From Nemertoderma westbladi (lineage: Eukaryota; Animalia; Xenacoelomorpha), in NCBI GenBank assembly GCA_032718475.1, contig JAUCBJ010008729.1, forward strand, positions 1,486 through 65,485: a stretch of DNA of 64,000 bases, in the 5' to 3' direction. The position numbers and the translations under genes were made by a program. Every line of letters starts with the position of its first letter. Position 1 is the first letter of the stretch. The notes beneath the pieces are model-generated. The model had not been told where the DNA came from, did not search any database, and worked only from the letters and a program-made list of their open reading frames with translations. Shown here in pieces: positions 22,726 through 44,309 of this stretch.

Positions 22726-24686
22726 GTTTGATTGTACAGTTGAATGCCTACTACTATAATGACAGTTAAAGCAAGTCTAGTAAATCAGTATCAACTGTTA
22801 GCCTAGTAATTAATTACCGATATCGTTACTCAATGTAACGCGATATATATATAATATATTAGAATACCGGTATACACTTATAGTATATATATAAGTATTA
22901 TTACAGACTAGGGTTTGTCACAGAATACCGGTATATAATTTCAGCATAAATATATAGAAATATATATAATAAGCCTACCGTGAATACCGGTATACAGCAT
23001 ACACTTATAGTATATATAAGTATGATTATAGAATAGAATTAATTACAGAATACCGGTATATAATTTCAGCTTAAATTTATAGAAATAAATATAATAAGCC
23101 TATCGTAAATACCGGTAATGTCAATTATTTTACGATGCCTAAATTTTTGAATTTTAGGGTTACTTTCCTTTACTTTATTACTGTTATTAAGCAGTAGTCC
23201 AACTGATGTTAAGACCTAATTGATGTATAACAGGCCTACTATTTTATAAATTGGTTTGAGTTGATTTATAATATATATATAACCGTATAATGGGTTTTTG
23301 ACAATATTTGAAATAAATATTATTATTTCTGGTAAGGAGTCACTACACAGAAGCTGAACGCTCTCAGTGGAGTGCTACTTGTTGGACACTAAAACAAATA
23401 ATTATACTTGACTAAGTTACTTATTACTACAAATTACATACAATTACTGGGCGAGATTTCAATCTCTAATAAACACAAAAATTACACGTACAAATTTTAG
23501 GGTAATTTTACAGGAAATCTAGAAACCAGCCTAACAAGGGGTTAGAATTTCTGGTTATTACAACGGACAGGATACTACGGTATTTGAAAATAATTAAGCA
23601 GTAGTAAATAAATTGCGTTGTCCAGATAAGAAAATACCACCATCTGACGACTTATAGTCTTTAGCTGTACAGCTCTATAAGTACTACGTTATGTACCCGG
23701 AGTGTTCTTACCTAGAAGTTAATTACCGCAGCCAACCAGAGCTAACGTGCCTATTAACCACTTTACAACACAAATATACTGCCTACACACTAATTACCTT
23801 CGGAAAGTACTGTACACTAAACCCTAAAGTAGGTACAAGTACTTATACAACAAATAACCAGCAGTTAAAAATACTTGTACAGCTAAAAGAACCACGGTAT
23901 CTGCTGGAGTGACTAGAGCATAAAATCACCAGTCTTTACCTACGCCAAGCAGCCCTGATGTAGTACCGGGGTTAATTTAACTATAACGGTATATATAACA
24001 AGCACAATTACTGTAGGAATAAACTTGGGGAGTTATGTATGTTGCGAATACTCGTATATACTCTGAATAATAAATATTACGCTATCCGTGCAGACTACAC
24101 AAACAAAATACAAACTAAACGCTGGCAGACTACTATCAAGCCTAAATAAACTACAGTATATGCAGACTCCGGAATGGTTAGTTAGTATGCGTTCTAACCG
24201 AGTAGTACGACTTATTCTTTCGGGGGGGATTTACCTTACAGCACTGGATGCCCCCACCTTCCTAACTAGTACTTTATTGGACATACACTCTACACACACT
24301 GCAATCTCTTCAGACTCAACAACAGTCAGACAACAATCCAGCCTACAAATTATTTGTACAATTTGAGCGGGCTTACACGCCTTCTGCTCAATATTACACT
24401 TACAAATAAATAAAACTGACAGAAATAAATAAGCTCTAAAAGAAACAAGGGGTGTACAGTCCCTAATCTCTTAAACAGCCTACCAATATACAATATCACA
24501 ATCGAAATAATACTGGTACCGGTAAGTACCGGTTCGGGTGGCTAGGTAGTTAGGCCTACAGGTTACCATCCGACCGGTACAGTCGAATTTATTGCCTACG
24601 TGCAATCAAAACAAAAAATCTATTATTGTTCTTACCAGAACAATAGACAACTATATTTTTGTTTCTAAAATTTGAAAATCTATTAT

Positions 24687-24972
24687 TGTTCGCGCTTTCA
24701 GACCTTTAGCAGTTTAACCTGCCAATTTTAGGTGTCCTCTTGTTTATAAATCGACTTTAGCCTATAACAACTATTTAATGCACATGAAGTAACATTAGCC
24801 GAAGCCAGTCTATGCGCGATCATTCACCCACAGTTAAGGGAGACTGGATTCGGATGCTTTGAAAGGATTGCGGTGCAGACCTACGGTATTATTCGATTGA
24901 TAGTTACTATATAATCTCTGACAATGTTATTCACTTTCGGGGAAATATTAACAGTTCCTTTAGGACGTGGCG
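24687..24972 (-). repeat. 5' LTR of element A, internal-side segment (split by B)
   Basis: Matches 8647-8932 apart from a few substitutions; ends at TSD TGGCG. Confidence 0.95.
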
Positions 24973-27169
24973 TGATAAACAACCGCGACCTCTATACTAA
25001 CAGCAGAACCGTTGAACAGACAAATACCCGTATACCTCTCTGCCAACCTAATGACTGTAATGAGCTCTCGCCTAACCAATAACAGAATAAGACACAAAGA
25101 CTGCACTACTGTTAAGTAAAGGGGATCAGGAGCGTGATATTACTAAATTGTAAGGGTTGCTAAATACAAAACCGCTACTTATCGTTAGATGGCGCTAATC
25201 TGCCGTACGCTAATATATTTACTAAATTTACACAACTCCTGCAAAATCGCTTGTTCCTTTCTCTACCGATCGCTCGATAGAGAGCTAACTGTTCGAATCT
25301 ATGAGCCACGCGGGAATAACCAAAACAATAAACCCGAGTCGGCTCCCTAAGCTTACTTAAGACGAGTGCGAGAGGCCTTGCACTCAGAGTATTCTTACGC
25401 CTAATTTTATCACTATTAAAGCACGCTATTACCTACGTCTTTCTAATCGCGAATACTGGAGGTTCCCTAACGTAATGTGTGAATGCGAGAATATTTAAAT
25501 ATCAAAACGGTACAGTATCTGTTCCTACGTAAATAACATCACTCCGGGTCTAAAATCGCCTGCAGCTGGCTTTAGACCAGCAAATTACTAGCGTATCGTG
25601 CGTACCGAATAGTACAATCTAGCTGATTGCCCGCTAATGCAAATAACCGCTCAGCGTGAATAGTTTACAGTACTCTAATTATTACTTTAGCTACTCTCCG
25701 CTATGCTGCGTACTAATTCTTAATTTTTACTAATTAATTACAGTCACAAATATTTAACAGCGTACTAATTACTAAGAGTTCCAGAATACGTAATTCTAAT
25801 TTATTACGCAACAAGTTTCGCTAGTAATAGCCTAAATTTGCCGTATTACTTTGACCTAATCAGTAACCAATTATTGTAACTAAGAAATAGAAATCAATCA
25901 AAGAAAAGGGGGGCGCCTACCTAAACATTCATAATCATAGGCACACTTCAATAACACACCAATCAGCGTTCACAGTTCGCAATTATGCAGTTAACTACTG
26001 TATAGTCCACAATTATGCGACTCACTATTCGTACTCTACATTTAACGTTATACGCTCTAATACGCTGTAACACGTGCAGGCCTCTCCCGGGTACATATGG
26101 GACTCCTAACTAACCTGATTCCTGCCCCCTAATACTAAATAGAGACGAAACCTGGATCATCAGCCCCCTAATTACTGTACCGGCGATAGGTCTGCCCGTT
26201 GCACGCAAGTTGCCCGACCCCCGCCAGCGTTGCCTGCCTTTGAATCCTCTGCTCTCCCTTAGTCGCTCAACCCCCCGATGTGCCCACCGCCCACTGGCGC
26301 CTTAGCCCTCCATTATGCTAATAGCTACCGTAGCGGCGCATGCAAATCACAAAGTCTGACAGTCTCAGGAATCCCTTAGGATTATTGCGCAGAAAAGAAT
26401 CACATAGAACCATTAATCAAAAGGTAGAAATCATAGTTCAGTTGTAATTAGCAGTAATCGACAGGAATTAATTGAGAAACACAAGCAAGAGTAATCGCAC
26501 TAGCAAATCATTCCAAGAAATTAATCAAATTAGCAAATTGCAGAAAAATACAAGTATCAAGAAAAACAGTAAGACAGGTGCTAGGGCTAGGTGTCATGTG
26601 ATGATAGGCTCTACCGGCACACCGCCAATTTATAGGTGATCCAGATGGGGTGATGCAATAGGGTGACTCAATCGCTTTCTTATTGGCTCTCCAGTCCGTG
26701 CTAGCACTAGACCAACCTGGAAGCAGCTAGTCCAATAAGGAGGCCGGATTGTAGCCCTATTTGCTCCCCTTCCTCGAATTATTACCATATATGGTAATGG
26801 TTCACGTCTCTGGCTGCTGAATGGCCAGGACAGCGTCCCTATATGCTAGCCCTACTAAAGCTAATATCAGCAAGCACGGAATCCAGGGTCCGAATAAACT
26901 TACCCTGGAACTATCTACATATAACCTAATACAAAATTACGTAGGTAGGGCTACATACTATACAAAATGGATGGATTCAAATATATGGGTGTTTCGATTT
27001 CCCTATCTAAATACCACTGCGTTATTATGCCTTATCTAAAATATCATGCTGCACAACGGACTAATATTACATACAGTATAACGGACTAATATTGCATACT
27101 GCATAACGGACTAATATTGCATACTGCATGATGACTAATATTATGGATACAGCGCCATATACCGTAACA
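24973..27169 (-). repeat. 3' LTR of element B (2197 bp)
   Basis: Near-identical to 42089-44304 (about 3 substitutions and indels of 6, 12 and 1 bp seen). Short ACGGACTAATATT tandem repeats at 27056-27143. Confidence 0.97.
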
Positions 27170-28045: not shown

Positions 28046-31000
28046 TCATCCCAATTGTCGCGCTCCCGTGGTCGCTTCCGCCAACTCTTCCTTCTGCAGT
28101 TGCACACGCGCTTTCTCAGACGCCCCCTGCGCCTTGCGCTGCAACCGCTGCGCTTCTATAATCGAATGGTAGTGGTCGTCCTTGACTTGACGCTTGTCTT
28201 GGACCTCTCCTCCTGGTTCTTTCCGCGAGCCTCGCGCTCCAGCGGTCGTCGCTGTGGTCGCTGCGATCCTTTGCTCTCGTATCCTCTCAGCGGTCAATGA
28301 ACCCACTGGCACATGAGTCAACAAGAATTCGTTGCGGTACTGTATAGCCGCCATCCTCCAATCTCCTCGCGCGCGTACCACCTTTCTAGTCTCCGTAAAT
28401 ACACCCTTCGTAATGCGATCGCAAATGGCAACGAAGTTCCATGTGTACTTATTGTCCATGTTCAATTGTCTGAAGTACTCTCGAACTACGATAACTCCAG
28501 TGTTCTGTGGAAGGTCTTGAGCAGTTAGGATGAGCTCCTGATATTGTGGTAGCGATTGTAAATATGGCTCGTACGCAACATGCGATGGGTCTACCGCCCA
28601 AAACCCATATCCCGCTTTAAATGGTAACCAACGCATCTGCGCTTGGATATGGTAATCGGCCACACCCTCCCACTTATCTAACATCTCCCGAAGTAGGTTA
28701 GCGCTATGGTTTTGAAAGGAATCATCTCGTAGCTGACATCTTGCGCTACGATGTCCCTTTACCCCGCAATATTCGCATTGAGAAATGAAGACGGTGCACG
28801 TATGAAACGAATGGTCGGTCTCATTACACCAACGGCAGACCTTATGCGCCGCCTCTATTACCGCGTCGCACGACTTTAGATTGTGCCTTGTGCTGCCGCA
28901 CAATTTGCACCTACGCGCTTGTGGAAACCAGGCCCTCTCGTATATGAGGTCTCCAATCGGTTTCGCACTTCCTTCTTTCCCAATGTCTAATACGATGTCG
29001 TCCTCTCCAGTCAACGGTTGTCGATCCGGAACAAAGTAAACATCCTCGCCCTTATCCTCTATCTCCAATATTTCCTCCCGCGTTCGTTTCGGATATGTCT
29101 TCTCCACCGGGAGATCTACTCCGAACACCTCTACTAAAGTCTCCGGCCAGCCCTCCTTAACAGGTTTATCAGCCTCCGAGTGGAAGGGAGTACCAAACCC
29201 GCGGGTTTGATTCCCGAACCACTTCTCCAAAGCTTCTGGCGTCGGATATTCCATCGACGGTCGGTCTCCCAAATCTCCGATATTCTGTCGATATATTCCT
29301 TCGAATATCGCTAATCCTCTCCTCACCATCGACGTATTCTCTAACGATTGGTTGAAGAACGGGGTTAAGAAACGCTTCATCACGTCGGATTGGATTCCCC
29401 CTTTCGAGCGAACGTATTGATCTCCTCCGAATACCAATGGATGACGCTTCAAAACTCGCGCAACGATATCCGCTAATAAACAAGTCACCGTGTTCGACTC
29501 AAGCACCAAATAATATTGTAGCGACGCACGGGGTGGCGCGCAAATGTTCCAATACACTAACGCTTGCCGCTTGAAGTGGGATTTGAACTCCGCTCCCGGT
29601 GGCGTGTTGTATTCGCCGTACGCCTCCTCGTACTTCTTTTGCGTCTTTAACTTAAAGTCCCAATTATACAACAAGTGTGCTATAAAGCCCATACCAGTCT
29701 TGGCAGAGTTGGGATACTCCCTATAAATTCCAATATCCTGTGCCCATAGCAACAATAGCTTGGTGTCGACAAACGGTCTAGGCAATCTATCTTCCAGATC
29801 AGTCATGGCGTTGAAGTCGCTCTCCAAATCGCTCTGGACTCCCGATCCCACCTTGACGTAATCTTGGTTGAGAATAGCCTCTCTAACTTTCTTGGGTAAC
29901 ATCCTGGCGTCGATACGCTCCGCTCCGTGCATACCTCCTCGCCTGCATACCTCCAAAATCTGTTCCCTAGGATCCTTTCCCTTCCGATATTGTGTCGTTA
30001 TGATGGGCTCCGGTCTCTCTCGATCCGCCCTCACACGCATAAACACATGAGTCACACCATCGGCCGCACGAATCTGAATACACTTGCTGGTCAAGCATTC
30101 TTGATGGGACCCTCCTTCATTGTCGTAGAACATCACCCTCCAATCTTGCAGTGATTCCTCCGTTTTCCTCCACTGACGCTGAATCTCATCTGATGGGGTC
30201 CACATGCGCTCGATCGCCTTGTGGTCATCATATCGGGTATAAGAACCCTTCCTCCTCAGCCACGTCTGGTCTACCTCCTCGTCGTCTGGGAATGTAGCCA
30301 CCGCGACCCATACCTTGATGTACTTATCCAACCATCCGAATAACTTACTCTCCTTCCCCGGAGCTCCAATCTTATCCAACGTGTCGTAATCTGTGATCTG
30401 CATTGGGACATCACGCAAGAACTTCGCGCATAAAACTTCCCGTAAACAGTCAACGTTCCAATGGTCCGCCATTCTTACCATCGGCAAGAATCGTATCGCT
30501 TCTCGCGACTCCGGATGATCTACTAATATCGCAGGTTCGGTGCCGTCGGAATAATACACCGGTCCGGGTTGAGATACGACCTGTGGAACAAATCCGGTCA
30601 CTCTCCTCGTCTCCTCTTGATGTCTATCCGCGGTCTTATTATACTCCGCTATCCTGTTCTCAAATAACTCCTTCGCCTTCGCCGCTCGCTCCTCCTGCCG
30701 CAACGCGTCTATGTCGTCCTGATGCTCAGGCGTGAGGCTTCTCACTCGGTGAGGTGAAGTAAACGTAGTCCAGGGACTCGAGAGCTCCAAACCCGCGGGT
30801 TTGGTACCCGAGTCCCGCGCCGCTTCGCGCCGCGCCTCTAGATCCTTGTAGGCTCGGTATAGCGAAATGGCCGCTGCCGTCTCTATCAAACTGGGTGTCG
30901 AACAGGGTTTAATCTCCGTATACGGATCTAATGTCGTAACGGTCGGCGTAATGGGTCTCGGAGGTCGCTTTCCGCTGAAGTCGATACTGATCATCGGGTT

Positions 31001-31576
31001 GCTCATCGGGTAACCTCCCTCGTTATATCTAAGGAATTGGTGAGCTGGACATCGCGTTAATATCGGTTCCGGATGTTGCTCGTCTAATCGGTCGGGAATC
31101 GCCACGTCCTGTTTATTCATGCATTCACCACACTTGTAGAAGAGCTTGTATACGCTGAAGACTTTCGGCGTCTCCTGATCCTCGCCTCGAGTCCTCCGAT
31201 ACAGATGCATTCCGTCGAACTGGTCTCGGACTGCAGGTAGAGGCTCCTCATGTCGTAAATACATATTCATATGGTATAGTCGTGCGATTTCCTCGTCCGG
31301 ATCTGCGCTAATGTCGCACACGTCCAAAGCAAAGTCGTAGGGATACCGCGTGCGATACTCTTTCCGCAAGACTTCCATCCGGTCCCCCAATGCTCTCATT
31401 CTTTCTCTCCGTAATTCTTTATCATAACTTGGTTTATACTTCCCGTTCAGCTCCATCACGGACCGCCCATGGTAGTAAACGTTAGAGTCTTTACATCCCG
31501 GTCGCGCGAATGGTAGCTCCGCCTTTTCTCTGGCAGTAAATCCTCTGCGCGGTTGCGCTCTAATATCCCTCTCCAT
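28046..31576 (-). CDS. Element B accessory ORF3, 1176 aa, three tandem CCHC zinc knuckles, no Env hallmarks; function unknown
   Basis: Open 3.5-kb frame between pol and the 3' LTR. CKLCGSTRHNLKSC, CRWCNETDHSFHTC and CEYCGVKGHRSARC are all C-x2-C-x4-H-x4-C. No N-terminal hydrophobic signal or C-terminal TM anchor is evident. Confidence 0.88.
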   Translation of the reverse strand: MERDIRAQPRRGFTAREKAELPFARPGCKDSNVYYHGRSVMELNGKYKPSYDKELRRERMRALGDRMEVLRKEYRTRYPYDFALDVCDISADPDEEIARLYHMNMYLRHEEPLPAVRDQFDGMHLYRRTRGEDQETPKVFSVYKLFYKCGECMNKQDVAIPDRLDEQHPEPILTRCPAHQFLRYNEGGYPMSNPMISIDFSGKRPPRPITPTVTTLDPYTEIKPCSTPSLIETAAAISLYRAYKDLEARREAARDSGTKPAGLELSSPWTTFTSPHRVRSLTPEHQDDIDALRQEERAAKAKELFENRIAEYNKTADRHQEETRRVTGFVPQVVSQPGPVYYSDGTEPAILVDHPESREAIRFLPMVRMADHWNVDCLREVLCAKFLRDVPMQITDYDTLDKIGAPGKESKLFGWLDKYIKVWVAVATFPDDEEVDQTWLRRKGSYTRYDDHKAIERMWTPSDEIQRQWRKTEESLQDWRVMFYDNEGGSHQECLTSKCIQIRAADGVTHVFMRVRADRERPEPIITTQYRKGKDPREQILEVCRRGGMHGAERIDARMLPKKVREAILNQDYVKVGSGVQSDLESDFNAMTDLEDRLPRPFVDTKLLLLWAQDIGIYREYPNSAKTGMGFIAHLLYNWDFKLKTQKKYEEAYGEYNTPPGAEFKSHFKRQALVYWNICAPPRASLQYYLVLESNTVTCLLADIVARVLKRHPLVFGGDQYVRSKGGIQSDVMKRFLTPFFNQSLENTSMVRRGLAIFEGIYRQNIGDLGDRPSMEYPTPEALEKWFGNQTRGFGTPFHSEADKPVKEGWPETLVEVFGVDLPVEKTYPKRTREEILEIEDKGEDVYFVPDRQPLTGEDDIVLDIGKEGSAKPIGDLIYERAWFPQARRCKLCGSTRHNLKSCDAVIEAAHKVCRWCNETDHSFHTCTVFISQCEYCGVKGHRSARCQLRDDSFQNHSANLLREMLDKWEGVADYHIQAQMRWLPFKAGYGFWAVDPSHVAYEPYLQSLPQYQELILTAQDLPQNTGVIVVREYFRQLNMDNKYTWNFVAICDRITKGVFTETRKVVRARGDWRMAAIQYRNEFLLTHVPVGSLTAERIREQRIAATTATTAGARGSRKEPGGEVQDKRQVKDDHYHSIIEAQRLQRKAQGASEKARVQLQKEELAEATTGARQLG

Positions 31577-32356
31577 TATATTACGCGTATATACATATAT
31601 ATATATCCCAATAAGTGCCGTTACGTAACCAACTACACTGTGGGTAAATCAGTTAGATGTCGCCGAAGGACAGACCTCCCGAACCCCCCCCGCCTTCCAG
31701 CAGTTCAGGTTCGACTCTCTAGATCCCGTCTCTTCCTAACTAACTATCCTCTAACCTATTCCCATGCATAGCGCAAAAACTTTGGAGATAAACTGGCCGT
31801 GACCAACTCACTTTTTGATGCCCAAACTACTCCCATTACTCCTACTAAACTACAGTAGTTAGAAAGGACCATAGTCACAATACTCGACTATACCAAACCC
31901 ACAGGTTTGATAATCGAACATCACACATCCTGCAAACTACTGAGTGGGGTCCATGTACGCCTCTGGTGCTACTAACCTTTAGCACCTTAGTTGCACTGTT
32001 GGCACCAATCTGTGGAAGTTGCTAAACTCAATTTACACTCCTACGTAATATAGCCATCACCATGGTTTCTAAATGCTATTTTCCAGGCTTCACGACTTTT
32101 ACTTTTCAAATTACTGTTTTCTATAGACGAATTTTTCTATAGACGGAAACTAAAACGCGTCTATACACAGCGTCTGGAATTGTCTTGGGTTCACTTCTAA
32201 TTTTTAAAATTTTCTAATTTTCCAAAAATTTTGAAAATAAAATTTTGTTTTGATACCCACTAGACAAAACTCAACGCAAATCACCACAACCCCGCTCCTA
32301 TGCATTTCCTTGTATTTGCATACGAGGAATGCATACGAAGTGAGTTGCGTCCAACA

Positions 32357-35300
32357 CTAACTCTGTTTTGAGGCAGGAGACAAATTATAATCTCCTGTCT
32401 TGATACGTGTCTCCTCTAATAACACAATATCTTGGACCGGTCGGTCCAAGGTGTGTAAACCATTAGTTTTACACTTTTTTGGGTGCGGACACTTGCACCT
32501 AATTTTCACAGTGACTGTGCGCACTATGTTATGCACGTCTGGGTGTGTGTGCAAGATCACTCCAGTCTCCCAATACTTTCTCTTGACAATGGGTTCGGTT
32601 ATCAGTACGTAATCTCCCCTTTGGAGGCTCCGAACCGTTTTGTACCACTTTGTTCTGGTGGATATGGTGGGAAGATAGTATTCCCGCCAATATTCCCAGA
32701 ATGTGTACGCTACTAATTGAGTCACTTTCCAGCTCTTACGACTATATAGGTCGGCACTAATGGGTTCTGATGCCGGCACAAGAAATGCTGGACTCTGCAT
32801 TAGCAAATGATTCGGCGTTAATGCAACACCGTCTGGTAACATAGCTATCGGCCTCGAGTTTAGGGTATGCTCGATTTCAATGAAAGCTGTGACCAGTTCG
32901 TCGTCGGTAAGTTGTTTGTTCACAGGCAATGTTTTAGCAATGGCCTGCTTTACAGAGCGAACTAAACGCTCCCAACTTCCTCCTCTCCAAGGACTTTCTG
33001 GAGTATTGAATCTCCATTCTACTCGTTGCGGCAAAAGTGCTGCAGAAATTTCCTTATTCTGTGCTGCTTTATGAGCCGCGTTCAACTCGCTATTCCCTCC
33101 GACAAAGTTTGTACCCTTATCGGAGTAGAACGCCTTTACTAGTCCTCTCCTGGCCATAAATCTCTTTAAGGCCAGGAGCAGAGATTTGGTCGACATGTCT
33201 GCCACACGCTCAATGTGTATGGCTCTACTCGCCATACATGTCAGTAGCAGACCCCATCGTTTGTGGGTCAGCCGTCCACTCTTTGCTTCAATCGGACCAA
33301 AACAATCCACCCCTGTGTTCGTAAAGGGTGGGTCATATGCATGCACTCTCGCTTCCGGGAGTTCAGCCATCTCCTGTTCCAATACTCTGGCGTTCACTCT
33401 CTTGCAAACCAGACAGGCGTCGTACATGGTGCCTACTGCCCTGCTTGGCTGCAATAGAATGAATCGCTGTCTCGCTGCCGACAAACAGTGTAACTTTCCC
33501 GCGTGATGCAACCTCTTGTGTATATCCCATAGAATCGCTCTTTGCAATTCTGTTGGGTGACTAGGGATTATCACTGGGAACCGAAACTGTGAGTTTATGT
33601 CGACAGTCTGGATTCTCGATCTATGACAAATCAAACCCTTATGGATTAATGGACTCCATTTTCTAAGGGGTTTATAGAGAACTGGTCGTTGAGCCGATAA
33701 TAGATGGAATTCTTTGGGGAAGGCACACATTTGATAATGTTTCAAATGCTTTAATTCCGCTTGATCAATCTCATCCTCTGTCAGAGGTTGTTTCAATTTC
33801 CGAATTCGCTCACTATTGGTGCTCAATGGTTCTCTCAAATGTTTCGAATGTTTTAAACAAAGGTACGAAATGTATCGGCTTAACCACGCAGTTCTTTTAC
33901 AAATTGTCAGCCAAGAGGCAGACGAATTTAGTAATTTGTCATAAATACTGCATGACTCTAATGCCAGCGACGGTTGTCCGCTAACCAATGGAAGTTTCGA
34001 ATCCAAACCCGCAGGTTTGGAAACCAAAGGCTCCATTGTGTCGGTCATTTTCTGTCCGTCACTTACCAACTGTGACTCCGGTTTAGTCTGTAAGGGTGGT
34101 TTTATGTCGTAACTTACCCTTCCTGACCTAGTAGTCACGTAAGTCTGTTGGTCTGACAGGTCTCCGGGCCGCTCCAATGACTCTTCAGGCCGCTCCAATG
34201 ACTCTTCAGGCCGCTCCAATGACTTAAGTTTGGCTTTAGACTTCGACTTAGAGACTTTCTCCACTTTGACTTCTGCATCTTCAGGCATCGGATTGGTCAC
34301 TATCTTTAGTCGCTCTGGCCAATGTTCCTGTGTCCTTGTTAGAAAATCAGGTCCATGCAACCAAAACTCCTGCGACTCTTCCTGACAAAATTCCGCCGGC
34401 ATTGCACCTCTCGAAGTTATGTCGGCCGGGTTCAACACTCCCGGACAATGTCTCCATTGTTCCTTCGTCGAAAAGTCAACGATCTGAGCGCGTCTGTTGG
34501 CCACAAATGTCTTTAGTGCAATATTGTCGGCCGCAATGTATACTAACACTAAGGATGCGTCCGTCCAATAGAATAAGGTCAATGTCGTGTCTAATTCCTC
34601 TGTTATTTGCTTACTTACCTCGACTGAAACTACAGCCGCCTGTAACTCTGCACGAGGGACAGTCATGTATTTGACCGGCATTGTCTTTGATCTAGAAGTC
34701 ACAAAGGCCGTCTCAAACTTGTCCTGACTTACCTCTCGGCGAAGGTAGGCTACCATACCAAAGCCGGTGTCACTTGCGTCACTAAACATATGCAGTTCGA
34801 GATCAGCTGGAAATACCAGCTGATTCGGAAAGTAGGAACGGGGTACGTCTATGTTTTTCAATAGATGTAACTCGGCTTCCCACTCTCTCCACTGCTTTGC
34901 ATGTATAGGAGATATTGGTTCGTCCCACTCTACGTCGGACAACCAAATTTTCCTCATGCACGCTCGTGCCTGTAATATAACCGGACTGATAAAGTTCATC
35001 GGGTCAAATAGTCTACTCAATGTCGATAAGCAAATCCTCTTAGTCAAAACTTTGTCTGGGCTACTGGGCTCAAATCTAACTCTTACCTGGAACTTATCTG
35101 AGTTCGGGTTCCAAGCGAGTCCCAGTACTCGCGCCATGGGGATTGGTTCTACCCCCAATTCTATGTCTCCGCTCCCGCGATCTTTTACCGGGAACGACTC
35201 TAATAGGGCCTCCGAATTCGTAGTGAACTTGGTCAGAGGAAATCCCCCTGTAGCCAAGCACTCTTGCAGGCCGTGAGCCACTTCTATGGCTTGTTCCGCC

Positions 35301-37330
35301 GTGTCCTTGGACACCAATCCGTCGTCCATGTAGAAGTTTCTCAAGATGGACTCGATAACCTCTACTGGGTACTTACCAATCTGGGCTGTTGCCGTTTTCT
35401 TTAGAACAAACAGCGTGCCATTCGGACTATCGCGGGCGCCAAATATCCTAACGTACATTTGGTATGTAACCACTGGGCCGGATAAGTCTTCATTCTCGTA
35501 CCAGAGAAAGCGAAGGCTATCCTGGTCTGCCTTACAGGCTCTTACCTGGTGGAACATCGCCTCGATGTCACAAGTAAATGCGAATCGTCGCTGTCTAAAA
35601 CGCAACAGTATTCCTATCAAATAGTTATTCAGGTTGGGACCATCCATCAACTCTGAATTCAGGGACATACCTCTATAGACTGCTGCGCAGTCGTTGACTA
35701 CTCGGACTTTGTCTGGCTTGTCAGGGTGAGTCACATAGTGGTGTGGAAGGTAATAAGTCTGGTCTGTCACTAAGTCAGGGTCCTCTACCTTCCCAGCAAA
35801 TCCCTTGGCGAAATAGTTGTTGATCTGGGCGCAATACTTCTCCCTAATGTCCGGATTCCTTAACAACCGAGCCCTTACTCCGTTCAATCTTTTCAAGGCT
35901 AAGTTGTAGTTGTTCTCCAACTTAGGTGGTTGTCGACGCCACAACATTCCAACTTCAAAATGTCCAGTCGGTAGCAGACGTATGGTGTCTTCCATCATCT
36001 CCAGCGACCGTTTTTCATCAGTAGACATGGCTAGGTCATATCCACCGGGTTCCATTGCGTCCCTATCCAGCCATTCGACGGTTCTGGCTCCTGTCTCGAG
36101 GTCCTGGCGTATCAATTCCTTCTGTAATTCCTCCTCACTGTATTGGAAAATGTCGAGGTCTCGATATTTAGCCACTTGACCCTCCACTATGTCTGTATAA
36201 GTCAAAACGTTAGTCAAATAGGTAGCGTGGGCCGCTGAACCAGACCCACGGGTCTGATAACAGTAGTCCTCGGGTTCACTATCTGTCCGGTCGTTATGAA
36301 GTGGTTCCGACAACCTAACATTATCGGGAATCAACTCCTCGTCCGACTCGCTAAAGTCACTATAGTGGTCAATACAGGTTCTCCTAAACTCGTCTATGTC
36401 TGGTGGTTCTACTAACGGTGGTTGAGTTATAGGCTGTAATTCGTCGTATCTATTCATTGGCTTGTCGCCACCTGTAAACTCATAAGACATGGGTACTCGT
36501 GTATACCAACCTAATATAGTCCTATGGGCATGTGGTCCATTGACATGCGGCTCAGCTGGTCTCGTTTCCCATATCTGGTGTGCGATCAGCTGTTCTGCAC
36601 CAATCAACATAGAAACATTCCTATAACCTACCTGGTGTCTGGGTATCCTGAGCTTGTCAAAATACTCCTGTGCTATGGGACTCATCGGCGGCACCTTACC
36701 TAACTGCCTGCCGAATCCCTTCATAGCTAGACACTTAAATCCGTCCAATGGCAAAGCTTTCCGTTCTTGTCGAGTGTGTTGGTCTCTCGGTAGTAGGGAA
36801 TCTAGTTCTACCGAAATTCTGTGTCCCTTGAGGTCTCCTACCCCATGCATAGACTTCAACTCTATTTGGATCTCCTCGGCGTCCTGGAAGCTAGAAACAG
36901 CTCTCGCCACTTCCTCGTCGATATAAGATAATGTGGACGCAGTGTCCAACATCACATATATTCGCTTCGATCCCTTATCGCCAGTGAGTTTCACCGGAAT
37001 CACGCTAAATATTTCCGACGTGGCCGATGATAAATACGTCCGCGCGCTGGTCGATGAACTATCCGCGGTGAAACCTTGGCAGGTCACTTCTCTCGCGCTC
37101 GACTCGCCATCCTCGTCCGACGAACCTGGTTGGTAACCATCGTCCTGGATGCCGGTGTACGTATTTCTCCTTATCGATACGGGTTCTTTGCTCCCCTTCC
37201 TGTGAGGATTTCGCTGTAAGTAACGGTCCGTCGGGGTGTGGAAATCCGCATGTAGCAACTTGTAGTCTGCCGCATTCCATGCATCCGTCCTTGCTGTTCG
37301 GGCACTGCCGCCGTACATGACCTGGCGCAA
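32357..37330 (-). CDS. Element B pol (protease, RT, RNase H, integrase)
   Basis: MLDTAS; RVVNDC, DIEAMFHQ, FGARDSP, YMDD; FSDAS, RAELQAA, WTD; H-x4-H..C-x2-C, GVDCFGP, SDKGTNF, GGSWERL. Confidence 0.96.
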   Translation of the reverse strand: MRQVMYGGSARTARTDAWNAADYKLLHADFHTPTDRYLQRNPHRKGSKEPVSIRRNTYTGIQDDGYQPGSSDEDGESSAREVTCQGFTADSSSTSARTYLSSATSEIFSVIPVKLTGDKGSKRIYVMLDTASTLSYIDEEVARAVSSFQDAEEIQIELKSMHGVGDLKGHRISVELDSLLPRDQHTRQERKALPLDGFKCLAMKGFGRQLGKVPPMSPIAQEYFDKLRIPRHQVGYRNVSMLIGAEQLIAHQIWETRPAEPHVNGPHAHRTILGWYTRVPMSYEFTGGDKPMNRYDELQPITQPPLVEPPDIDEFRRTCIDHYSDFSESDEELIPDNVRLSEPLHNDRTDSEPEDYCYQTRGSGSAAHATYLTNVLTYTDIVEGQVAKYRDLDIFQYSEEELQKELIRQDLETGARTVEWLDRDAMEPGGYDLAMSTDEKRSLEMMEDTIRLLPTGHFEVGMLWRRQPPKLENNYNLALKRLNGVRARLLRNPDIREKYCAQINNYFAKGFAGKVEDPDLVTDQTYYLPHHYVTHPDKPDKVRVVNDCAAVYRGMSLNSELMDGPNLNNYLIGILLRFRQRRFAFTCDIEAMFHQVRACKADQDSLRFLWYENEDLSGPVVTYQMYVRIFGARDSPNGTLFVLKKTATAQIGKYPVEVIESILRNFYMDDGLVSKDTAEQAIEVAHGLQECLATGGFPLTKFTTNSEALLESFPVKDRGSGDIELGVEPIPMARVLGLAWNPNSDKFQVRVRFEPSSPDKVLTKRICLSTLSRLFDPMNFISPVILQARACMRKIWLSDVEWDEPISPIHAKQWREWEAELHLLKNIDVPRSYFPNQLVFPADLELHMFSDASDTGFGMVAYLRREVSQDKFETAFVTSRSKTMPVKYMTVPRAELQAAVVSVEVSKQITEELDTTLTLFYWTDASLVLVYIAADNIALKTFVANRRAQIVDFSTKEQWRHCPGVLNPADITSRGAMPAEFCQEESQEFWLHGPDFLTRTQEHWPERLKIVTNPMPEDAEVKVEKVSKSKSKAKLKSLERPEESLERPEESLERPGDLSDQQTYVTTRSGRVSYDIKPPLQTKPESQLVSDGQKMTDTMEPLVSKPAGLDSKLPLVSGQPSLALESCSIYDKLLNSSASWLTICKRTAWLSRYISYLCLKHSKHLREPLSTNSERIRKLKQPLTEDEIDQAELKHLKHYQMCAFPKEFHLLSAQRPVLYKPLRKWSPLIHKGLICHRSRIQTVDINSQFRFPVIIPSHPTELQRAILWDIHKRLHHAGKLHCLSAARQRFILLQPSRAVGTMYDACLVCKRVNARVLEQEMAELPEARVHAYDPPFTNTGVDCFGPIEAKSGRLTHKRWGLLLTCMASRAIHIERVADMSTKSLLLALKRFMARRGLVKAFYSDKGTNFVGGNSELNAAHKAAQNKEISAALLPQRVEWRFNTPESPWRGGSWERLVRSVKQAIAKTLPVNKQLTDDELVTAFIEIEHTLNSRPIAMLPDGVALTPNHLLMQSPAFLVPASEPISADLYSRKSWKVTQLVAYTFWEYWREYYLPTISTRTKWYKTVRSLQRGDYVLITEPIVKRKYWETGVILHTHPDVHNIVRTVTVKIRCKCPHPKKCKTNGLHTLDRPVQDIVLLEETRIKTGDYNLSPASKQS

Positions 37331-40300
37331 GACATGCCCAACAGGTGTCCAACGTCCGCACTTGAACTCTTCTCTGTTCCGAATTTAATTCTTTGAACCG
37401 TCTGCAACTATCTAACTTATGGTCGTCAGATCTTACCTCCTTTAGTAAACAGTATTGGCAACCTACAAATCCATCCGGCAACTCCTGTTGCTTTAACCTA
37501 GGTCTATCTAACCGCTCACCTGACCATACTCGCGAGTCTGATCTAAAGGCTGGGGTATTCGAATTATATCTGTCTACTGAGTTAAATGTCACAGTGGTCC
37601 TGTCATCGTCAAAACTTACCATAGACTTACCGGTAACAGGTTTAGACTCCCTCATATTCTCCTCTGAGAAGTTTGATTTCATCTCTGCTACTGCGTCTGT
37701 GGCTATCATGTCATGAATATGCTGAAGTGTCAATACTTTACCTTGGCCCTCCAACTTATTCTCTAATTTGCGCCATTTCTGTCGATAACGCATATTTAGA
37801 CGTCTTATTACGCTTTTCAAAACTTCGGCGTGATCACCATGATGAGGTAGATTCACCGTCCTCAGGATGTCCAATGCGTTCGAAATAGCGTTCGCTAAGT
37901 TCAAAAGCTCTAACGGAGTTGTAATCCTTCCGCCCTTACCCAAGTCTTCTACTATCGACTGCGCCATCTTGGTTTTATTCCCGTAGATGTCGCTAAGCGT
38001 CTTCATCGCTAACTCAAATGCTCTCTCGTTGCCGACGAAGTTATCAGCAATGGCTCTAGGTTCTCGATGGAGCATCTGAAGCAAATAGTTGAACTTCTCG
38101 TTGGGAGTAAAGGTGCTGTTGGTTAGCTGCTCGTCGACATAGGTTTTAAAGGTCCTCCAGTGCTTATGGTTGCCCATAAACTTCTGGGGTTGTTGCGTCG
38201 GCAGTCCTTGCCTAGCAGCAAACTTACCTATGTCCCTAAGGGTTGCGTCGTTCCGGGTTAACAAATGGTTTAGTTCCGCAGGGTTGTTAAGTCTGGTCCT
38301 TTCCCGGTGGTTCCAACTTACCTGCTCCGCGTCGGTCCTTCTTTCCTTATAGTTTCGGGACTTCTGACGTCTCATTTCTTCCTCTTCATCGCTCGACTCG
38401 GTGTCAGTCCTTAACGCTCGCGATGGTTTGCGCGCCGAGGCCCTGATCCAAGCCTCCTCTATAAATTTCTCGGCTGAGTTTTCGAAGTTGGGATTAGAGA
38501 TGTTCGGGACAGGCGTCCTTACCTGAGGTCTATGTGGTATAGTTTCCTCCGATATGCGTACTCGTTGACTAGGCTGGACTTTGTCTAACTCAGGTCTGCT
38601 AGGATTAGAATTACTTCTTACCTGGGCTGCTTCCTTTAACCGTAGGTTGCTAAGCATGTCCGTTATAGGTTGGATGTGTGGCGATATAGCTTGCGCTAAA
38701 CTAGCACTCAACTCATCCCTCGTAATAAATTCCTGGCTAGGGTTCTGTTGTATAGTCGGCTCTATCTGAGTAATCCGCTGTCTCTCATATGATCCCTCTT
38801 CCGGTTTAACCCGGAAGTTCTCCGTCGAACTGGGTCGGCGCTCCGTCCGCGTATTCCAAACCCGCGGGTTCGGTTCGCCCAATACTCGGCCCGTCGGAGT
38901 TTCTTCTCTAAATTCTTCGTTGTCGCGTTCGGTGTATAGTGGTGCGGCGTTCCGATGACGTAGATCCTGCGCGATAGGTGAAGCACTAATACCAACTGGC
39001 GTGCGATATGTAGAGAATGGTTTAACGATCCGTGTACTCGTAATAGCTGGACCGGGTATAGGAATTTTGGTCGTCGTCGACTCGCGTATGGTCGGAGTTC
39101 TCGCTTCCTGTTCGGCCTTCTGCAGTGCGAACAGTTCTCGCAACTCGGTCCCTACACTCGCCCCACATTCTTCGATCATTCGCATCCCCTTCTCGGCGAT
39201 TTCGTTCGCCTTCCTAGTCCGTTCTTCGCTCTCTAAACTTAATCTCGCACTTTCCAACTGCGCCAGTTTACGTTCTTCTTCTTCCCTCGCTCGTCTCGCT
39301 GCGCCCTCTTCTTCCACTCGCGCCTTTTCTTCATACAATGCGCGTCTTCTTTTCTCGATCTCGAGTTCGCGTTCCTTGCGTCCGCGTTCGAGTTGAAGCT
39401 CGCGCTCCTTCTGTTCACGATCGAGTTTCTTGCGCTCGCGTTCGGCTTGGAGTTCGCGTTTCTTCGCTTCCTGTTCGCGTTCGAGTTGGAGTTCGCGTTT
39501 CTTCGCTTCCCGTTCGCATTCAAGTTGGAGTTCGCGTTTCTTCGCTTCCCGTTCGCATTCGAGTTGGAGTTCGCGTTCTCTCTGTTCGCATTCGAGTTCC
39601 TCGCGTTCGCGCTCGGCTTGGAGTTCACGTTCCCTTTGCTCGCGTTCCGCTCGCTCGCGCTTACTTATCTCTTCCAACTCTCGTAACTCTGCGTCCAACT
39701 TACGTGTGCGCTTCCGTTCCCTTTCGGCTTCCTTCCGTGCTTCCTGTGCACGCAAAACTTCCGCCTGCTGTTCGTCTAGTCGGCGTCTTCTCTCCTCCGC
39801 CGAGTTGTGAGAAACAAGGGATCTAGCACATATTACCTTACCTCGCGCGTGACTAACCTGGGAATCGCCGCTGTCTCTAGATGCGTCGTCGGGTGGAGTC
39901 AACGTCCTCTGTTGAATGTTCTCCGTCGTCGGTAGCACCTGACCCGGTACCACCACTCCATTCTGCATCAGCCAGCTAGTAACTTCCCTCTGATAACGGC
40001 GCTCCTCTTTATCCTGCGTCTCTTCTCGCTCCACTAAGTCTCTTAACTCTGCGTCACTCACCTGAGTCGCCTGCGCTTGTGATGCCCATAGCAGCCAGTT
40101 CTCTGTCCTAACTCGTCGGAATCGCTCCGATAACTCGCGGTGCTCTAACAAGGCTGCTAAAACCCTGTCGTAAATCCTCGTCGCCACGTCGCTCGACTGA
40201 GACTCCACTGCCTTCTTCGCTAGGACTGCAAGCTCCTCCGTCTGCTTGAATAACGCTGAGTTATTCCTCTTCTAATCTCTGCTAACTCTACCCTCCCGAT

Positions 40301-40807
40301 GTTCGCTGAGTCGGCTAACATTTTCCTTACCTTGTCCGCCGTCCGGGTTATATGTCCGGCATGCGCGCGAAGTTTCTTCTTCATCGCAGTGTCGAACTCT
40401 CTATCACTTACCTGACTTACGCTCGGTGGACTTGAAGGATTATTTCGGGAACTACGGGTACTCCTTACAGCCGCTGGGACCACGGCACTTACCATACCCA
40501 CAGGTCTGGAAACCGGGCTCCGGGCTCTCGCTTCTGCTACACTACCCTCCTTATCACTCACCTCTGGTCGGGTTGCTGTACAATCCTTCCTTACAGTAGC
40601 GGTAGGGGATCCTAATACTATTACTTGAGGTTGTTGTTCTTCCTCACTAGTCACTGTCTCGTCCTCCTGTTCACTTACGTCAGCGTCGCTCGCTGCGTCG
40701 TCATAGTCGGCATTGTCGTCAACAGTAATATTGACGCTATCGTCAGTCGGCGGTCCAGCCGCCGTCTCGTAGCTGTCCTCTAGTGCCTCTTTGTCTGAGA
40801 CACTCAT
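37059..40807 (-). CDS. Element B gag (frames 40220..40807 and 37059..40208; coiled coil with 11-aa repeats, capsid region, zinc knuckles)
   Basis: KKRELQLECERE repeats; KFMG...W..F...EKFNYL..L...YG; CQYC..H, CWAC..GH....C and CMEC knuckles. Confidence 0.9.
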
Positions 40808-42088
40808 AGTCTAAATAATGTTTGCCTTCCGGCAAAATTATCTCGCAAAAGTTCGAGATATTATTATAATTTAACCGAAATACGGTCAAATTAATTGTCA
40901 AATAATCAGTTGGTCCAAAATGTCAAATAAATTCGCAATGCAATATTGTGAATTTAATGGGGTATATAGTTATAGCAAATACTAGCACAATATTTAAACA
41001 AAAATATTATTATATAGCTACTATATAGCATTAAATACTGGTATAGCACAAAATAACTCTGAATCTAATACAAAATATTCAAAATATACTTGCCACCCGA
41101 ATATTTCTAATTTTATATATATAGCTCTAATCAACGTAATTTTAATTTCAAATATTATATGTATCCACTAGCGCGTGGCTACATCTTCGGGTTGCGACTC
41201 TCTCTAACTCTCTCTCTAACTTGAGCGATTCAAAAAACCATGGCCGGCTAAACCTAAATATCCTAACTAATAAATTGAGTTCAGCTTCGCAGTTAAACAA
41301 CCGATAATTTTTTACTGCTTCCACAAACACACTGGTGCCAACAGAACAACCAACCTTGTTTGCTGTGAGATTCCACGTCCGCGTCCAAAGATTCAGGCTC
41401 TCCGCTGATTGCAAACCGAACCCGCAGACCCACACGAACCCCAAACTCAGAAGTTCCGTCTTGCCATGTATCTCCAGATGGTATAAAATAACTAAGCGGT
41501 TACCTAACATACCGGTACAAAACTCTAGAATTTTACAAAATAATTTTGACCGAAACTGAATTCTCGCAAACCTAGCTAATAATTTTCAAAAACTTACTAA
41601 TTACAATTTGCCCTAAGGCCTAAGGAACTGTATTCGCAATTAGTAAAAACGCACTACCGTACATCCACTGTATGCAGTACAGTAAGTAAAACAGTACACC
41701 AACCTAACAGCCTAATGATACTGTATATGTGGTACGGCAAAACAAATGTCCCTTCTACCGTACGCAGTAACAGCAATCAGCCTAATGTACTACTGTACTA
41801 TTGTACGCAGCCAGTGAATACAGTAATCTAAACTAACAACCTAAAGGAATATGCTCAATGTCTTACCGTACGCTAGCCTATAGCCTACAGCAGACGATCA
41901 CGTGCTCTAATTTATTGCCTAATACTATGATACTACTAATCAGCCTAAGAATACACTATCGACTGCTGCAAGCAACAGCCAATAAATGCACGTGTTACTG
42001 ATACGAAGTATCAGTAATCTAAACTAACAGCCTAAGAATACTCTATTTACTGTACGCTACAGCCTACAGCAAACAGTCCACGTGTTAC

Positions 42089-44304
42089 TGATAAACAACC
42101 GCGACCTCTATACTAACAGCAGAACCGTTGAACAGACAAATACCCGTATACCTCTCTGCCAACCTAATGACTGTAATGAGCTCTCGCCTAACCAATAACA
42201 GAATAAGACACAAAGACTGCTCTACTGTTAAGTAAAGGGGATCAGGAGCGTGATATTACTAAATTGTAAGGGTTGCTAAATACAAAACCGCTACTTATCG
42301 TTAGATGGCGCTAATCTGCCGTACGCTAATATATTTACTAAATTTACACAACTCCTGCAAAATCGCTTGTTCCTTTCTCTACCGATCGCTCGATAGAGAG
42401 CTAACTGTTCGAATCTATGAGCCACGCGGGAATAACCAAAACAATAAACCCGAGTCGGCTCCCTAAGCTTACTTAAGACGAGTGCGAGAGGCCTTGCACT
42501 CAGAGTATTCTTACGCCTAATTTTATCACTATTAAAGCACGCTATTACCTACGTCTTTCTAATCGCGAATACTGGAGGTTCCCTAACGTAATGTGTGAAT
42601 GCGAGAATATTTAAATATCAAAACGGTACAGTATCTGTTCCTACGTAAATAACATCACTCCGGGTCTAAAATCGCCTGCAGCTGGCTTTAGACCAGCAAA
42701 TTACTAGCGTATCGTGCGTACCGAATAGTACAATCTAGCTGATTGCCCGCTAATGCAAATAACCGCTCAGCGTGAATAGTTTACAGTACTCTAATTATTA
42801 CTTTAGCTACTCTCCGCTATGCTGCGTACTAATTCTTAATTTTTACTAATTAATTACAGTCACAAATATTTAACAGCGTACTAATTACTAAGAGTTCCAG
42901 AATACGTAATTCTAATTTATTACGCAACAAGTTTCGCTAGTAATAGCCTAAATTTGCCGTATTACTTTGACCTAATCAGTAACCAATTATTGTAACTAAG
43001 AAATAGAAATCAATCAAAGAAAAGGGGGGCGCCTACCTAAACATTCATAATCATAGGCACACTTCAATAACACACCAATCAGCGTCAGAAATTACAGTTC
43101 GCAATTATGCAGTTAACTACTGTATAGTCCACAATTATGCGACTCACTATTCGTACTCTACATTTAACGTTGTACGCTCTAATACGCTGTAACACGTGCA
43201 GGCCTCTCCCGGGTACATATGGGACTCCTAACTAACCTGATTCCTGCCCCCTAATACTAAATAGAGACGAAACCTGGATCATCAGCCCCCTAATTACTGT
43301 ACCGGCGATAGGTCTGCCCGTTGCACGCAAGTTGCCCGACCGCAACGTTGACCCCCGCCAGCGTTGCCTGCCTTTGAATCCTCTGCTCTCCCTTAGTCGC
43401 TCAACCCCCCGATGTGCCCACCGCCCACTGGCGCCTTAGCCCTCCATTATGCTAATAGCTACCGTAGCGGCGCATGCAAATCACAAAGTCTGACAGTCTC
43501 AGGAATCCCTTAGGATTATTGCGCAGAAAAGAATCACATAGAACCATTAATCAAAAGGTAGAAATCATAGTTCAGTTGTAATTAGCAGTAATCGACAGGA
43601 ATTAATTGAGAAACACAAGCAAGAGTAATCGCACTAGCAAATCATTCCAAGAAATTAATCAAATTAGCAAATTGCAGAAAAATACAAGTATCAAGAAAAA
43701 CAGTAAGACAGGTGCTAGGGCTAGGTGTCATGTGATGATGAGGCTCTACCGGCACACCGCCAATTTATAGGTGATCCGGATGGGGTGATGCAATAGGGTG
43801 ACTCAATCGCTTTCTTATTGGCTCTCCAGTCCGTGCTAGCACTAGACCAACCTGGAAGCAGCTAGTCCAATAAGGAGGCCGGATTGTAGCCCTATTTGCT
43901 CCCCTTCCTCGAATTATTACCATATATGGTAATGGTTCACGTCTCTGGCTGCTGAATGGCCAGGACAGCGTCCCTATATGCTAGCCCTACTAAAGCTAAT
44001 ATCAGCAAGCACGGAATCCAGGGTCCGAATAAACTTACCCTGGAACTATCTACATATAACCTAATACAAAATTACGTAGGTAGGGCTACATACTATACAA
44101 AATGGATGGATTCAAATATATGGGTGTTTCGATTTCCCTATCTAAATACCACTGCGTTATTATGCCTTATCTAAAATATCATGCTGCACAACGGACTAAT
44201 ATTACATACAGTATAACGGACTAATATTGCATACTGCATAACGGACTAATATTGCATACTGCATGATGACTAATATTATGGATACAGCGCCATATACCGT
44301 AACA
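42089..44304 (-). repeat. 5' LTR of element B (2216 bp)
   Basis: Direct repeat of 24973-27169. Confidence 0.97.
43763..43821 (-). promoter_or_regulatory. Candidate LTR B promoter: CCAAT (43817-43821) and TATAAAT (43763-43769)
   Basis: Motifs and spacing are typical of a Pol II promoter; no transcript evidence. Confidence 0.45.
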
Positions 44305-44309
44305 TGGCG

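Follow-up and report, generated by a model that had tools for sequence, protein, structure and literature searches.

Leader copies of the LTR/primer-binding-site junction overlap hairpins in two nested BEL/Pao elements of Nemertoderma westbladi

Two nested BEL/Pao elements

The 64,000-nt stretch of the Nemertoderma westbladi assembly analyzed here (the window) contains two young BEL/Pao elements, A and B, one nested in the other, with B splitting the 5' LTR of A. All features below lie on the minus strand and are given in window coordinates. Element A has a 1,141-nt 3' LTR (8647..9787) that reads TG...CA in the element sense, with the target duplication GCCAT, and a 5' LTR divided into a U5-side piece (24687..24972) and a U3-side piece (44305..45164). 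Its polypurine tract (9788..9794) adjoins the 3' LTR and is identical over 7 nt to that of B, and its gag-pol region is spread over several reading-frame pieces (14569..22584). Element B carries a 3' LTR (24973..27169; target duplication TGGCG), a third open reading frame (ORF3, 28046..31648), a pol gene encoding protease, reverse transcriptase (RT), RNase H, and integrase (32357..37384), a gag gene with a DUF1759 domain (37059..40271), and a 5' LTR of 2,216 nt (42089..44304). ARAGORN and Rfam scans of the window returned no matches.

On the evidence of their proteins, A and B are BEL/Pao retrotransposons. Both show the Pao-type Pfam domains DUF1759, Peptidase_A17, Integrase_H2C2, and DUF5641, together with direct LTRs ending in TG...CA, a polypurine tract, and a 5-bp target duplication. 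A Pfam match to a chromodomain, which would have pointed to the Tf1/sushi chromovirus lineage of Ty3/gypsy, was not found in either. The RT regions of the two pol genes are 38% identical, and the closest of 409 relatives is 42% identical; no relatives were found among viral contigs. Membership rests on the proteins; the priming of A and B departs from the family profile. Belpaoviridae are described as having an 18-nt primer-binding site (PBS) for host tRNA-Arg/Gly, LTRs of 0.2 to 1.2 kb, and genomes of 4.2 to 10 kb (PMC8742986). A and B share with them the Pao-type gag and pol, the order protease-RT-RNase H-integrase, the LTRs, the polypurine tract, the 5-bp target duplication, and an extra ORF 3' of pol, but differ in a PBS of 10 to 11 nt that matches the LTR, in the 2.2-kb LTR of B, in element sizes of about 17 and 19 kb, and in an ORF3 without an env match.

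ORF3 of B spans 1,200 amino acids from stop to stop and contains a triple zinc-knuckle-like motif; part of a homologue is found in A (10195..11655; 24% identity, E 2e-33). Searches of ORF3 gave no Pfam match, no env match, and no close homologues, and an Atlas match of 0.78 was at noise level. Distant relatives of the B protein carry a 3'-5' exonuclease-like domain (a weak match), and a profile comparison placed the EXD2 exonuclease at rank 18 of 26 (E 0.0019). In B itself, the first acidic motif of this exonuclease-like region appears to be lost.

Primer-binding sites complementary to the LTR

Neither 5' LTR is followed by TGG, and the 18-nt tRNA-type PBS of the ICTV profile was not found at either junction. 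Instead, the PBS of A (24676..24686, 11 nt) and that of B (42079..42088, 10 nt) adjoin the LTR, and each is complementary along its whole length to a word in its own LTR, with the match ending exactly at the LTR edge. These words, which are candidate self-primers, lie at 44791..44801 in A (3' LTR copy at 9414..9424) and at 43189..43198 in B (3' LTR copy at 26067..26076). An anchored LTR complement of this kind arose by chance in 10/5000 shuffles for A and 8/5000 for B. Both words match without any splicing and neither follows an AG, so a primer assembled by splicing need not be invoked.

Contigs of the B family add to this picture. Position 43193 in the LTR word differs from the window copy in 10330/10330 (X1) and 13256/13256 (X3) of contig depth, and its partner in the PBS, position 42084, differs in 12078/12128, 12773/13070, and 12648/12648; these figures, like all B-family depths given here, are summed contig depths rather than copy numbers and come from short, unphased contigs. 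The G-C pair of the window copy is thus an A-U pair in at least 97.7% of contig depth. This matched double change, which is a single event, supports self-priming, and we consider it likely that A and B prime minus-strand DNA with a 10- to 11-nt piece of their own LTR RNA.

TATAAA lies at LTR position 353 in A, 11 nt before the word at 364, and at position 536 in B, about 570 nt before the word at 1107, a spacing that fits poorly with the word being the first 10 to 11 nt of the transcript. A putative RNA run (X5) covered neither the leader nor the word and weighs neither way. The first-pass annotation had likened the arrangement to the U5-leader stems of Tf1 and RSV; when we searched for the flanking duplexes of the Tf1 "pretzel," all 8 of 8 duplex tests scored no better than shuffles (best, 30/300), and the likeness to Tf1 was not found.

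Junction duplicates overlapping leader hairpins

The true LTR/PBS junctions, placed by the LTR ends and the 5-bp target duplications, are at 24686/24687 in A and 42088/42089 in B. A second copy of each junction occurs within the leader, 60 nt in for A (24615..24631; 5 nt of LTR end and 12 nt of PBS region) and 90 nt in for B (41989..42003; 5 nt of LTR end and 10 nt of PBS), and in both the LTR portion is exactly 5 nt. Each copy overlaps a hairpin. In A (24624..24645), a 9-bp stem closes a 4-nt loop, the duplicate forming the 3' arm, and the predicted fold continues with four further pairs beyond a 3-nt bulge; in B (41995..42017), a 10-bp stem closes a 3-nt loop. The six strings on which the first-pass annotation had based this observation are all present where it placed them, and the 12-nt pairing that it reported between the B duplicate and the LTR word is real.

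Such an arrangement lies well outside what chance would produce. When the 30-nt junction is compared with the 285 nt of leader that follow it, the longest exact match is 17 nt in A and 15 nt in B, lengths reached in 0/5000 dinucleotide shuffles for each element, and perfect stems of 9 bp (A) and 10 bp (B) arose in 49/5000 and 6/5000 shuffles, respectively. The combined signature was found at only these two sites in 362,528 bases, comprising both strands of the window and of 19 loci taken from a metagenome scan at 34 to 42% identity. It was absent from these 19 distant loci, of which just one (L006) has paired LTRs and a definable junction; L006 likewise lacks TGG, and it contains neither an LTR complement of at least 8 nt nor a duplicate.

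The B duplicate sits in degenerate tandem units of about 90 nt (41821..42093; 77% and 79% identity), whose homology begins at the terminal 5 nt of the LTR. The tandem repeat alone is insufficient to explain the feature: the duplicate is identical at 15/15 positions compared with 49/69 in the rest of the unit, and the corresponding background in A, where the spacer unit has no detectable source, is 21/41. The duplicates are perfect, while their flanks are merely 51 to 71% alike. The claim that the two leaders share an architecture stands, whereas their description as unrelated in sequence does not entirely, since downstream of the duplicate they share a word of 13 nt (15/16 nt, E 0.095), a match that is weak alone. 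The proposed tie of the feature to priming or strand transfer is supported, and the feature looks maintained.

Variation within the B family

Family-wide conservation of the hairpin, with compensatory changes, had been suggested as a check, and the outcome was mixed. The hairpin is present in most B-family depth, but compensatory changes were seen in 0 of 10 stem pairs, one of which is broken in 3 to 6% of depth; the family is too uniform over these 23 nt, with just one substitution row, for covariation to show. Conservation of the hairpin does not clearly exceed that of its flanks. Leaders without the hairpin make up about 3% of depth and could stem simply from slippage between the repeats, or from older subfamilies.

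Overall, the duplicate site of the B family occurs in variable, deleted, and exchanged forms. Dips in depth and many haplotypes of 3 to 6 letters are seen over the PBS portion of the duplicate and again at the far edge of the true site, and similar letter patterns appear at both places; the window's duplicate carries the minority letter of the window copy itself. Joints that lead from the LTR end to the flank of the duplicate, with new PBS letters, skip 94 to 99 nt (depth 38 to 219 each, against about 13,000), and two go-back joints place this flank after unit 1.

A possible hairpin-gated landing site for the second strand jump

The reading that we favor, although we hold it somewhat short of an even chance, is that the leader duplicate offers the plus-strand jump a second, hairpin-gated landing site, making up for a short self-primed PBS. 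In minus-strand DNA, the plus-strand end would be able to land on the duplicate during the second strand jump, the hairpin normally masking this spare site and then releasing it. The LTR word would anneal to the PBS and be cut at its own 3' end, leaving 10 to 11 nt for the second jump compared with 18 nt in tRNA-primed relatives. The plus-strand end could initially pair with that part of the duplicate's complement left outside the stem, after which the hairpin arm, having the same sequence as that end, would re-zip and pass it to the true 3' end of the minus strand; extension into the LTR would then make the transfer one-way. Failed hand-offs would yield leaders short of one unit and letters exchanged between the two sites. 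The anchored LTR complements, the matched double change, the perfect duplicates, and the B-family variants at this spot speak for this reading; the lack of compensatory changes, the hairpin-less leaders, the TATAAA spacing, and the missing signature in the 19 distant loci speak against it. Run-off of RT 5 nt past the PBS, a snap-back copy, and re-entry might have created duplicate and hairpin in one event.

In one context, the DNA folds of the two landing states differed by no more than 0.5 kcal/mol in both A and B, with the true site favored by 5 to 6 kcal/mol after 5 nt of extension. Over 12 contexts the landing balance was context dependent, ranging from 0.5 to 3.9 in A and from -7.0 to +5.4 in B, in a model that lets the five LTR bases pair freely even though in the real intermediate they should already be paired; two DNA parameter sets gave identical values and are counted as one. 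Run-on priming from the duplicate is ruled out for these two insertions, as the 3' LTR of each ends at the true junction.

A broader catch-and-release version is more doubtful. In it, a clade of giant BEL/Pao elements would self-prime without the Tf1 pretzel, and a programmed module, a copy of the LTR edge and PBS with an ejector arm, would pass a short strand, either the primer with 5 added bases or the plus-strand end, on to the true junction. ORF3, exonuclease-like and with zinc-knuckle motifs, may trim the primer or overhang, and the module would be rebuilt or converted by reverse transcription, so that the arm and the duplicate drift in step with the word and the PBS.

Alternative explanations

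Somewhat less probable again is that the same run-off, snap-back, and re-entry left a scar without selected function, the hairpin rendering the duplicate harmless and occasional mispairing during strand transfer keeping its match to the PBS. A single RT error would account for the 5-nt LTR piece, the inverted arm, and the unit boundary in B, and such a scar agrees with the hairpin-less leaders, with the lack of observed covariation in B-family hairpins, and with RNA folding, in which the hairpin state prevails in 5/6 contexts (in the longest B context, 621 nt, the hairpin itself is a minor fold with a mean pair probability of 0.028). However, perfect stems persist in both elements even though the spacer units are old (77 to 79% alike in B, without detectable source in A); two families whose RT regions are 38% identical share the layout; and conversion would mend the duplicate but not the arm.

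We regard as unlikely a role at the RNA level, in which the self-primer would bind the duplicate, gain 5 LTR bases, and be ejected by the re-closing hairpin to the true junction, where it would pair over 15 to 16 nt, or in which the duplicate would be a decoy. The arm is identical in sequence to the 3' end of the primer followed by the first 5 bases of cDNA, and for the word with its upstream bases, predicted pairing is stronger at the duplicate than at the true PBS (-15.8 versus -10.8 in A; -21.3 versus -17.7 in B); no Tf1-type flanking duplexes were found that could serve instead. Although primer on duplicate is the lowest state in B (-51.6 versus -48.4), in A it is worse by 5.7 kcal/mol, with the duplicate enclosed in a long stem, and use in RNA would not alone make the duplicate variable in DNA.

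The arm swap put forward by the first-pass annotation, a two-state RNA switch in which the arm toggles between the duplicate and the true junction to turn priming off and on, is improbable. Formally, the arm can form 8 pairs (A) or 9 pairs (B) with the true junction, but in free RNA this state lies 4.7 to 6.0 (A) and 8.2 to 9.3 (B) kcal/mol above the ensemble, is worse in 6/6 contexts, and has a mean pair probability of at most 0.0013. The supposed near-equality of two mutually exclusive folds appeared only in B with the primer word added, where the swap is reachable (-47.6 versus -48.4, a difference of 0.8 kcal/mol); in A the state remained 8.0 kcal/mol worse with the primer (-22.1 versus -30.1) and 4.6 worse with a primer 10 nt longer, and no trigger was identified. 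Least probable is a PBS served by a host RNA (a tRNA half or small RNA), with the LTR word and duplicate incidental or used in dimerization or packaging: the B PBS of the window copy contains a 6-nt palindrome that might count in its favor, but the common variant breaks it, and across B-family contigs the PBS shows variable letters that change along with the LTR word, where a host primer would keep the site constant.

Comparison with known systems and significance

In hepadnaviruses, the epsilon hairpin lies near a short copy of the start sequence, and a short strand is handed to DR1. The combination of hairpin, start-sequence copy, and strand hand-off resembles that proposed here, but hepadnavirus synthesis is protein primed. 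In RSV, U5-leader and U5-IR stems surround the PBS and expose it, whereas the arm in A and B would cover the junction. The Ty3/gypsy chromoviruses Tf1, Tf2, and Tj1 of the Tf1/sushi group use the RNA 5' end as primer and need a three-duplex pretzel, according to the portions of the sources available to us (PMC4600332, PMC6317226, bioRxiv 10.1101/2022.12.06.519325). A and B are similar in that the PBS adjoins the CA of the LTR and pairs with a word in that LTR; they differ in that the flanking duplexes were not found, and those same portions describe neither a leader duplicate nor a masking hairpin for Tf1-type elements. In HIV-1 MAL/subtype A, according to the available part of one study, 14% of isolates carry a 23-nt partial duplication of the PBS, which alters the fold of the PBS domain (PMC3185550). 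There too a PBS copy lies downstream of the true PBS, but priming is by tRNA, and, in that account, the duplication is a partial PBS copy with point mutations rather than a copy of the U5 edge with a complementary arm.

Neither a self-priming BEL/Pao element nor a duplicate-hairpin arrangement appeared in the titles and abstract openings returned by searches of open-licence literature, and PMC554778 and PMC3118150 contain no mention of "PBS" or "tRNA." BEL/Pao replication has been described as poorly understood and tRNA primed (PMC8742986). The matched change of PBS and LTR word provides sequence evidence for self-priming in this family, which leaves to be explained how the second strand jump can succeed from so short a self-primed PBS. 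Even if the duplicate is a mere RT scar, it would still mark where minus-strand synthesis ends. A duplicate gated by a hairpin, seen in two families whose letters differ, would offer a concrete and testable answer to the question of the second jump, for which the natural deleted and exchanged copies are ready material.

Anatomy and kinship of elements A and B

Elements A and B, both on the minus strand, are assigned to BEL/Pao from their Pfam domains. B sits inside the 5' LTR of A, with 5-bp target duplications at both elements. Self-comparison and end inspection placed the LTRs of B at 24973-27169 and 42089-44304 (2193 identities, 4 mismatches, and 19 gap positions) and the 3' LTR of A at 8647-9787; the 5' LTR of A is split by B into pieces at 24687-24972 and 44305-45164, with LTR identities of 283/286 and 849/860, respectively. 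The closest database relative has 42% identity (best of 409), and A and B share 38% identity with each other in their RT regions. Sequence comparison also identified a homologous ORF3 (B, 28046-31648; A, 10195-11655; minus strand) with three zinc-knuckle-like motifs, for which no env match was found in either element. Seven distant ORF3 relatives carry exonuclease-like acidic motifs, with a profile match to EXD2 (E 0.0019); the first of these motifs is apparently lost in B. Nematode Cer elements have a 3'-5' exonuclease domain.

A third BEL/Pao element, C (about 59700-63350, minus strand), whose 5' end falls outside the window, shares 68-70% DNA identity with the B pol in three stretches. On the 3' side of its pol lies a tRNA-like stretch (58283-58357, minus strand) containing words that resemble an A box and a B box; neither ARAGORN nor Rfam called it, and a SINE remnant and an element-borne tRNA mimic are suggested alternatives. 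The non-LTR RT and endonuclease frames and the 23-, 21-, and 44-bp tandem arrays (1134-5657, 53887-55053, 7521-8290, 50861-51232, and 55654-56474) are ordinary repeat landscape.

Primer-binding sites matching the elements' own LTRs

TGG is absent directly 3' of the 5' LTR in both A and B. The primer-binding site (PBS) of each begins at the first base past the LTR's CA and is complementary to a word of the element's own LTR, 11 nt in A and 10 nt in B, the 3' end of which pairs with the first PBS base; 10/5000 (A) and 8/5000 (B) LTR shuffles equalled this complementarity. In contrast, the ICTV profile of Belpaoviridae describes an 18-nt tRNA PBS (PMC8742986). A distant full-length BEL/Pao locus from a metagenome scan (L006, 1281-1640) likewise has no TGG PBS, and a search there for an LTR complement of at least 8 nt to the primer site found none.

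Family-level variation was drawn from contigs of public sequencing runs (X1-X5) aligned to B only, and the contig figures for X1-X3 refer to the listed rows, with 7-213 further rows per table. At word position 43193, known from X1 and X3 (X4 and X5 being without cover there), the letter differs from the window in 10330/10330 (X1, 11 contigs) and 13256/13256 (X3, 6 contigs) of depth. The partner PBS position, 42084, differs in 12078/12128 (X1), 12773/13070 (X2), and 12648/12648 (X3), from two samples. At these two positions the window copy has G-C and the other B-family contigs have A-U, one unphased double change of the kind expected if the PBS is copied from its primer. Whereas the PBS of tRNA-primed elements is fixed by the tRNA, B-family PBS letters vary widely. 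The region 42071-42088 takes at least five forms among listed X1-X3 contigs sharing one LTR end.

A duplicated junction within a hairpin

The first-pass annotation reported that both leaders duplicate the LTR/PBS junction within a hairpin, and all six of its strings are exact in place. The duplicates (A, 24615-24631; B, 41989-42003) consist precisely of the PBS preceded by the final 5 bases of the LTR, and the 5' arm of the overlapping stem (A, 9 bp, 24624-24645; B, 10 bp, 41995-42017) is the complement of the junction. No shuffle in 5000 reached either duplicate, 49/5000 (A) and 6/5000 (B) equalled the stems, and a scan of 362,528 bases for the combined signature returned just two sites, A and B. 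The feature is real in both elements.

In the tandem repeat of B, unit homology starts at the same 5 LTR bases (77% over 73 columns), but the duplicate is identical at 15/15 positions versus 49/69 elsewhere in the unit (chance 0.7-3.5% at a 72-80% background). The flanks of the A duplicate are identical at 21/41. As the match exceeds the surrounding repeat in B and the flanks in A, the copy was either kept matched or made separately from the repeat.

The hairpin is present in B-family contigs, with a depth of 6,700-20,400 similar to that of the flanks. Among listed rows, position 42016 holds the single substitution across its 23 nt (805/13376, 633/10479, and 540/16484), which disrupts a pair; compensatory changes, proposed as a check, are seen at 0/10 pairs among these rows, in a stretch where the B family is too uniform to be expected to show many. 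Where the duplicate covers PBS sequence (41987-41993), depth falls to about 2,500-3,800, and each listed piece carries 3-6 differing letters. A similar pattern holds at the true PBS along its far edge (depth 1,180 at 42077 in X1). One haplotype in X1, X2, and X3 has three letters changed in the duplicate's PBS part and none listed within the hairpin. Joints deleting duplicate and hairpin total a depth of about 460 (X1) and 370 (X3), about 3%, among listed rows. In several, the LTR end runs into the flank of the duplicate and the PBS letters are different, and two go-back joints in X3 put that flank after unit 1.

Soon after the duplicate, the leaders share 15/16 nt (24583-24598 and 41906-41921, minus strand; E 0.095), possibly a shared cis-signal. 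Folding predicts further minus-strand stem-loops, a long one after the A duplicate (24518-24590) and one directly after the B PBS (42046-42078), which are possible packaging signals.

Possible roles of the duplicate

Our tentative preference is that the duplicate gives the plus-strand jump a second, hairpin-gated place to land. A self-primer would leave just 10-11 nt for this jump; the duplicate would provide a second target for the plus-strand end, and the arm, identical in sequence to the incoming strand, would displace it to the true end. In DNA folding of the plus-strand end, the true site with the hairpin closed and the duplicate with the hairpin open score -20.4 and -19.9 (A) and -24.6 and -24.1 (B), and after 5 nt of extension the true site is ahead by 5-6 in both. 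Since the gap between landing states depends on context (0.5 to 3.9 in A and -7.0 to +5.4 in B over 12 contexts) and the model counts the 5 LTR bases as free, these values demonstrate feasibility only.

A less probable reading is an RT scar without function, held matched by conversion; run-off, snap-back, and re-entry would be the origin under both this and the landing-site reading. Prime-and-realign or a decoy at the RNA level is somewhat less likely again. With the primer word, A favors the true PBS with a closed hairpin (-30.1, versus -22.1 for the swap and -24.4 for primer on duplicate), and B is close or reversed (-48.4, versus -47.6 and -51.6). Both 3' LTRs terminate at the true junction, so completed priming from the duplicate is excluded as the maker of the A and B insertions.

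The first-pass proposal of a two-state RNA switch, with the arm alternating between duplicate and true junction, is improbable. Folding of the RNA free of primer gave the local hairpin as the dominant form in 5/6 contexts, its pairs having a mean probability of 0.68-0.95, the exception being the longest B context with 0.028. Arm:true-junction pairing costs 4.7-6.0 (A) or 8.2-9.3 (B) kcal/mol, approaching equality in B only with the primer word; an arm-swap common to A and B is therefore unsupported by folding with or without primer. A host primer is very unlikely.

The nearest known systems are self-priming of the Tf1 type and, in HIV-1 MAL, a partial PBS duplication of 23 nt (PMC3185550). The A and B PBSs work like that of Tf1 in matching a putative own-LTR primer (PMC4600332, PMC6317226, bioRxiv 10.1101/2022.12.06.519325). 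The likeness to Tf1 is incomplete: the flanking "pretzel" duplexes failed 8/8 tests, and the positions of TATAAA do not place the word at the transcript's start. In A, TATAAA (44802-44812 / 9425-9435) lies 11 nt ahead of the word, which may thus lie upstream of the RNA start; alternatively, the hexamer may be a 3'-end signal, 16 nt ahead of the word end. Also comparable are the RSV stems and the hepadnavirus epsilon hand-off. Neither a self-priming BEL/Pao element nor the duplicate-hairpin layout was found in the open-licence literature. For this family, a second landing site would explain the maintained match, the letter variation at both sites, and the copies one unit short.
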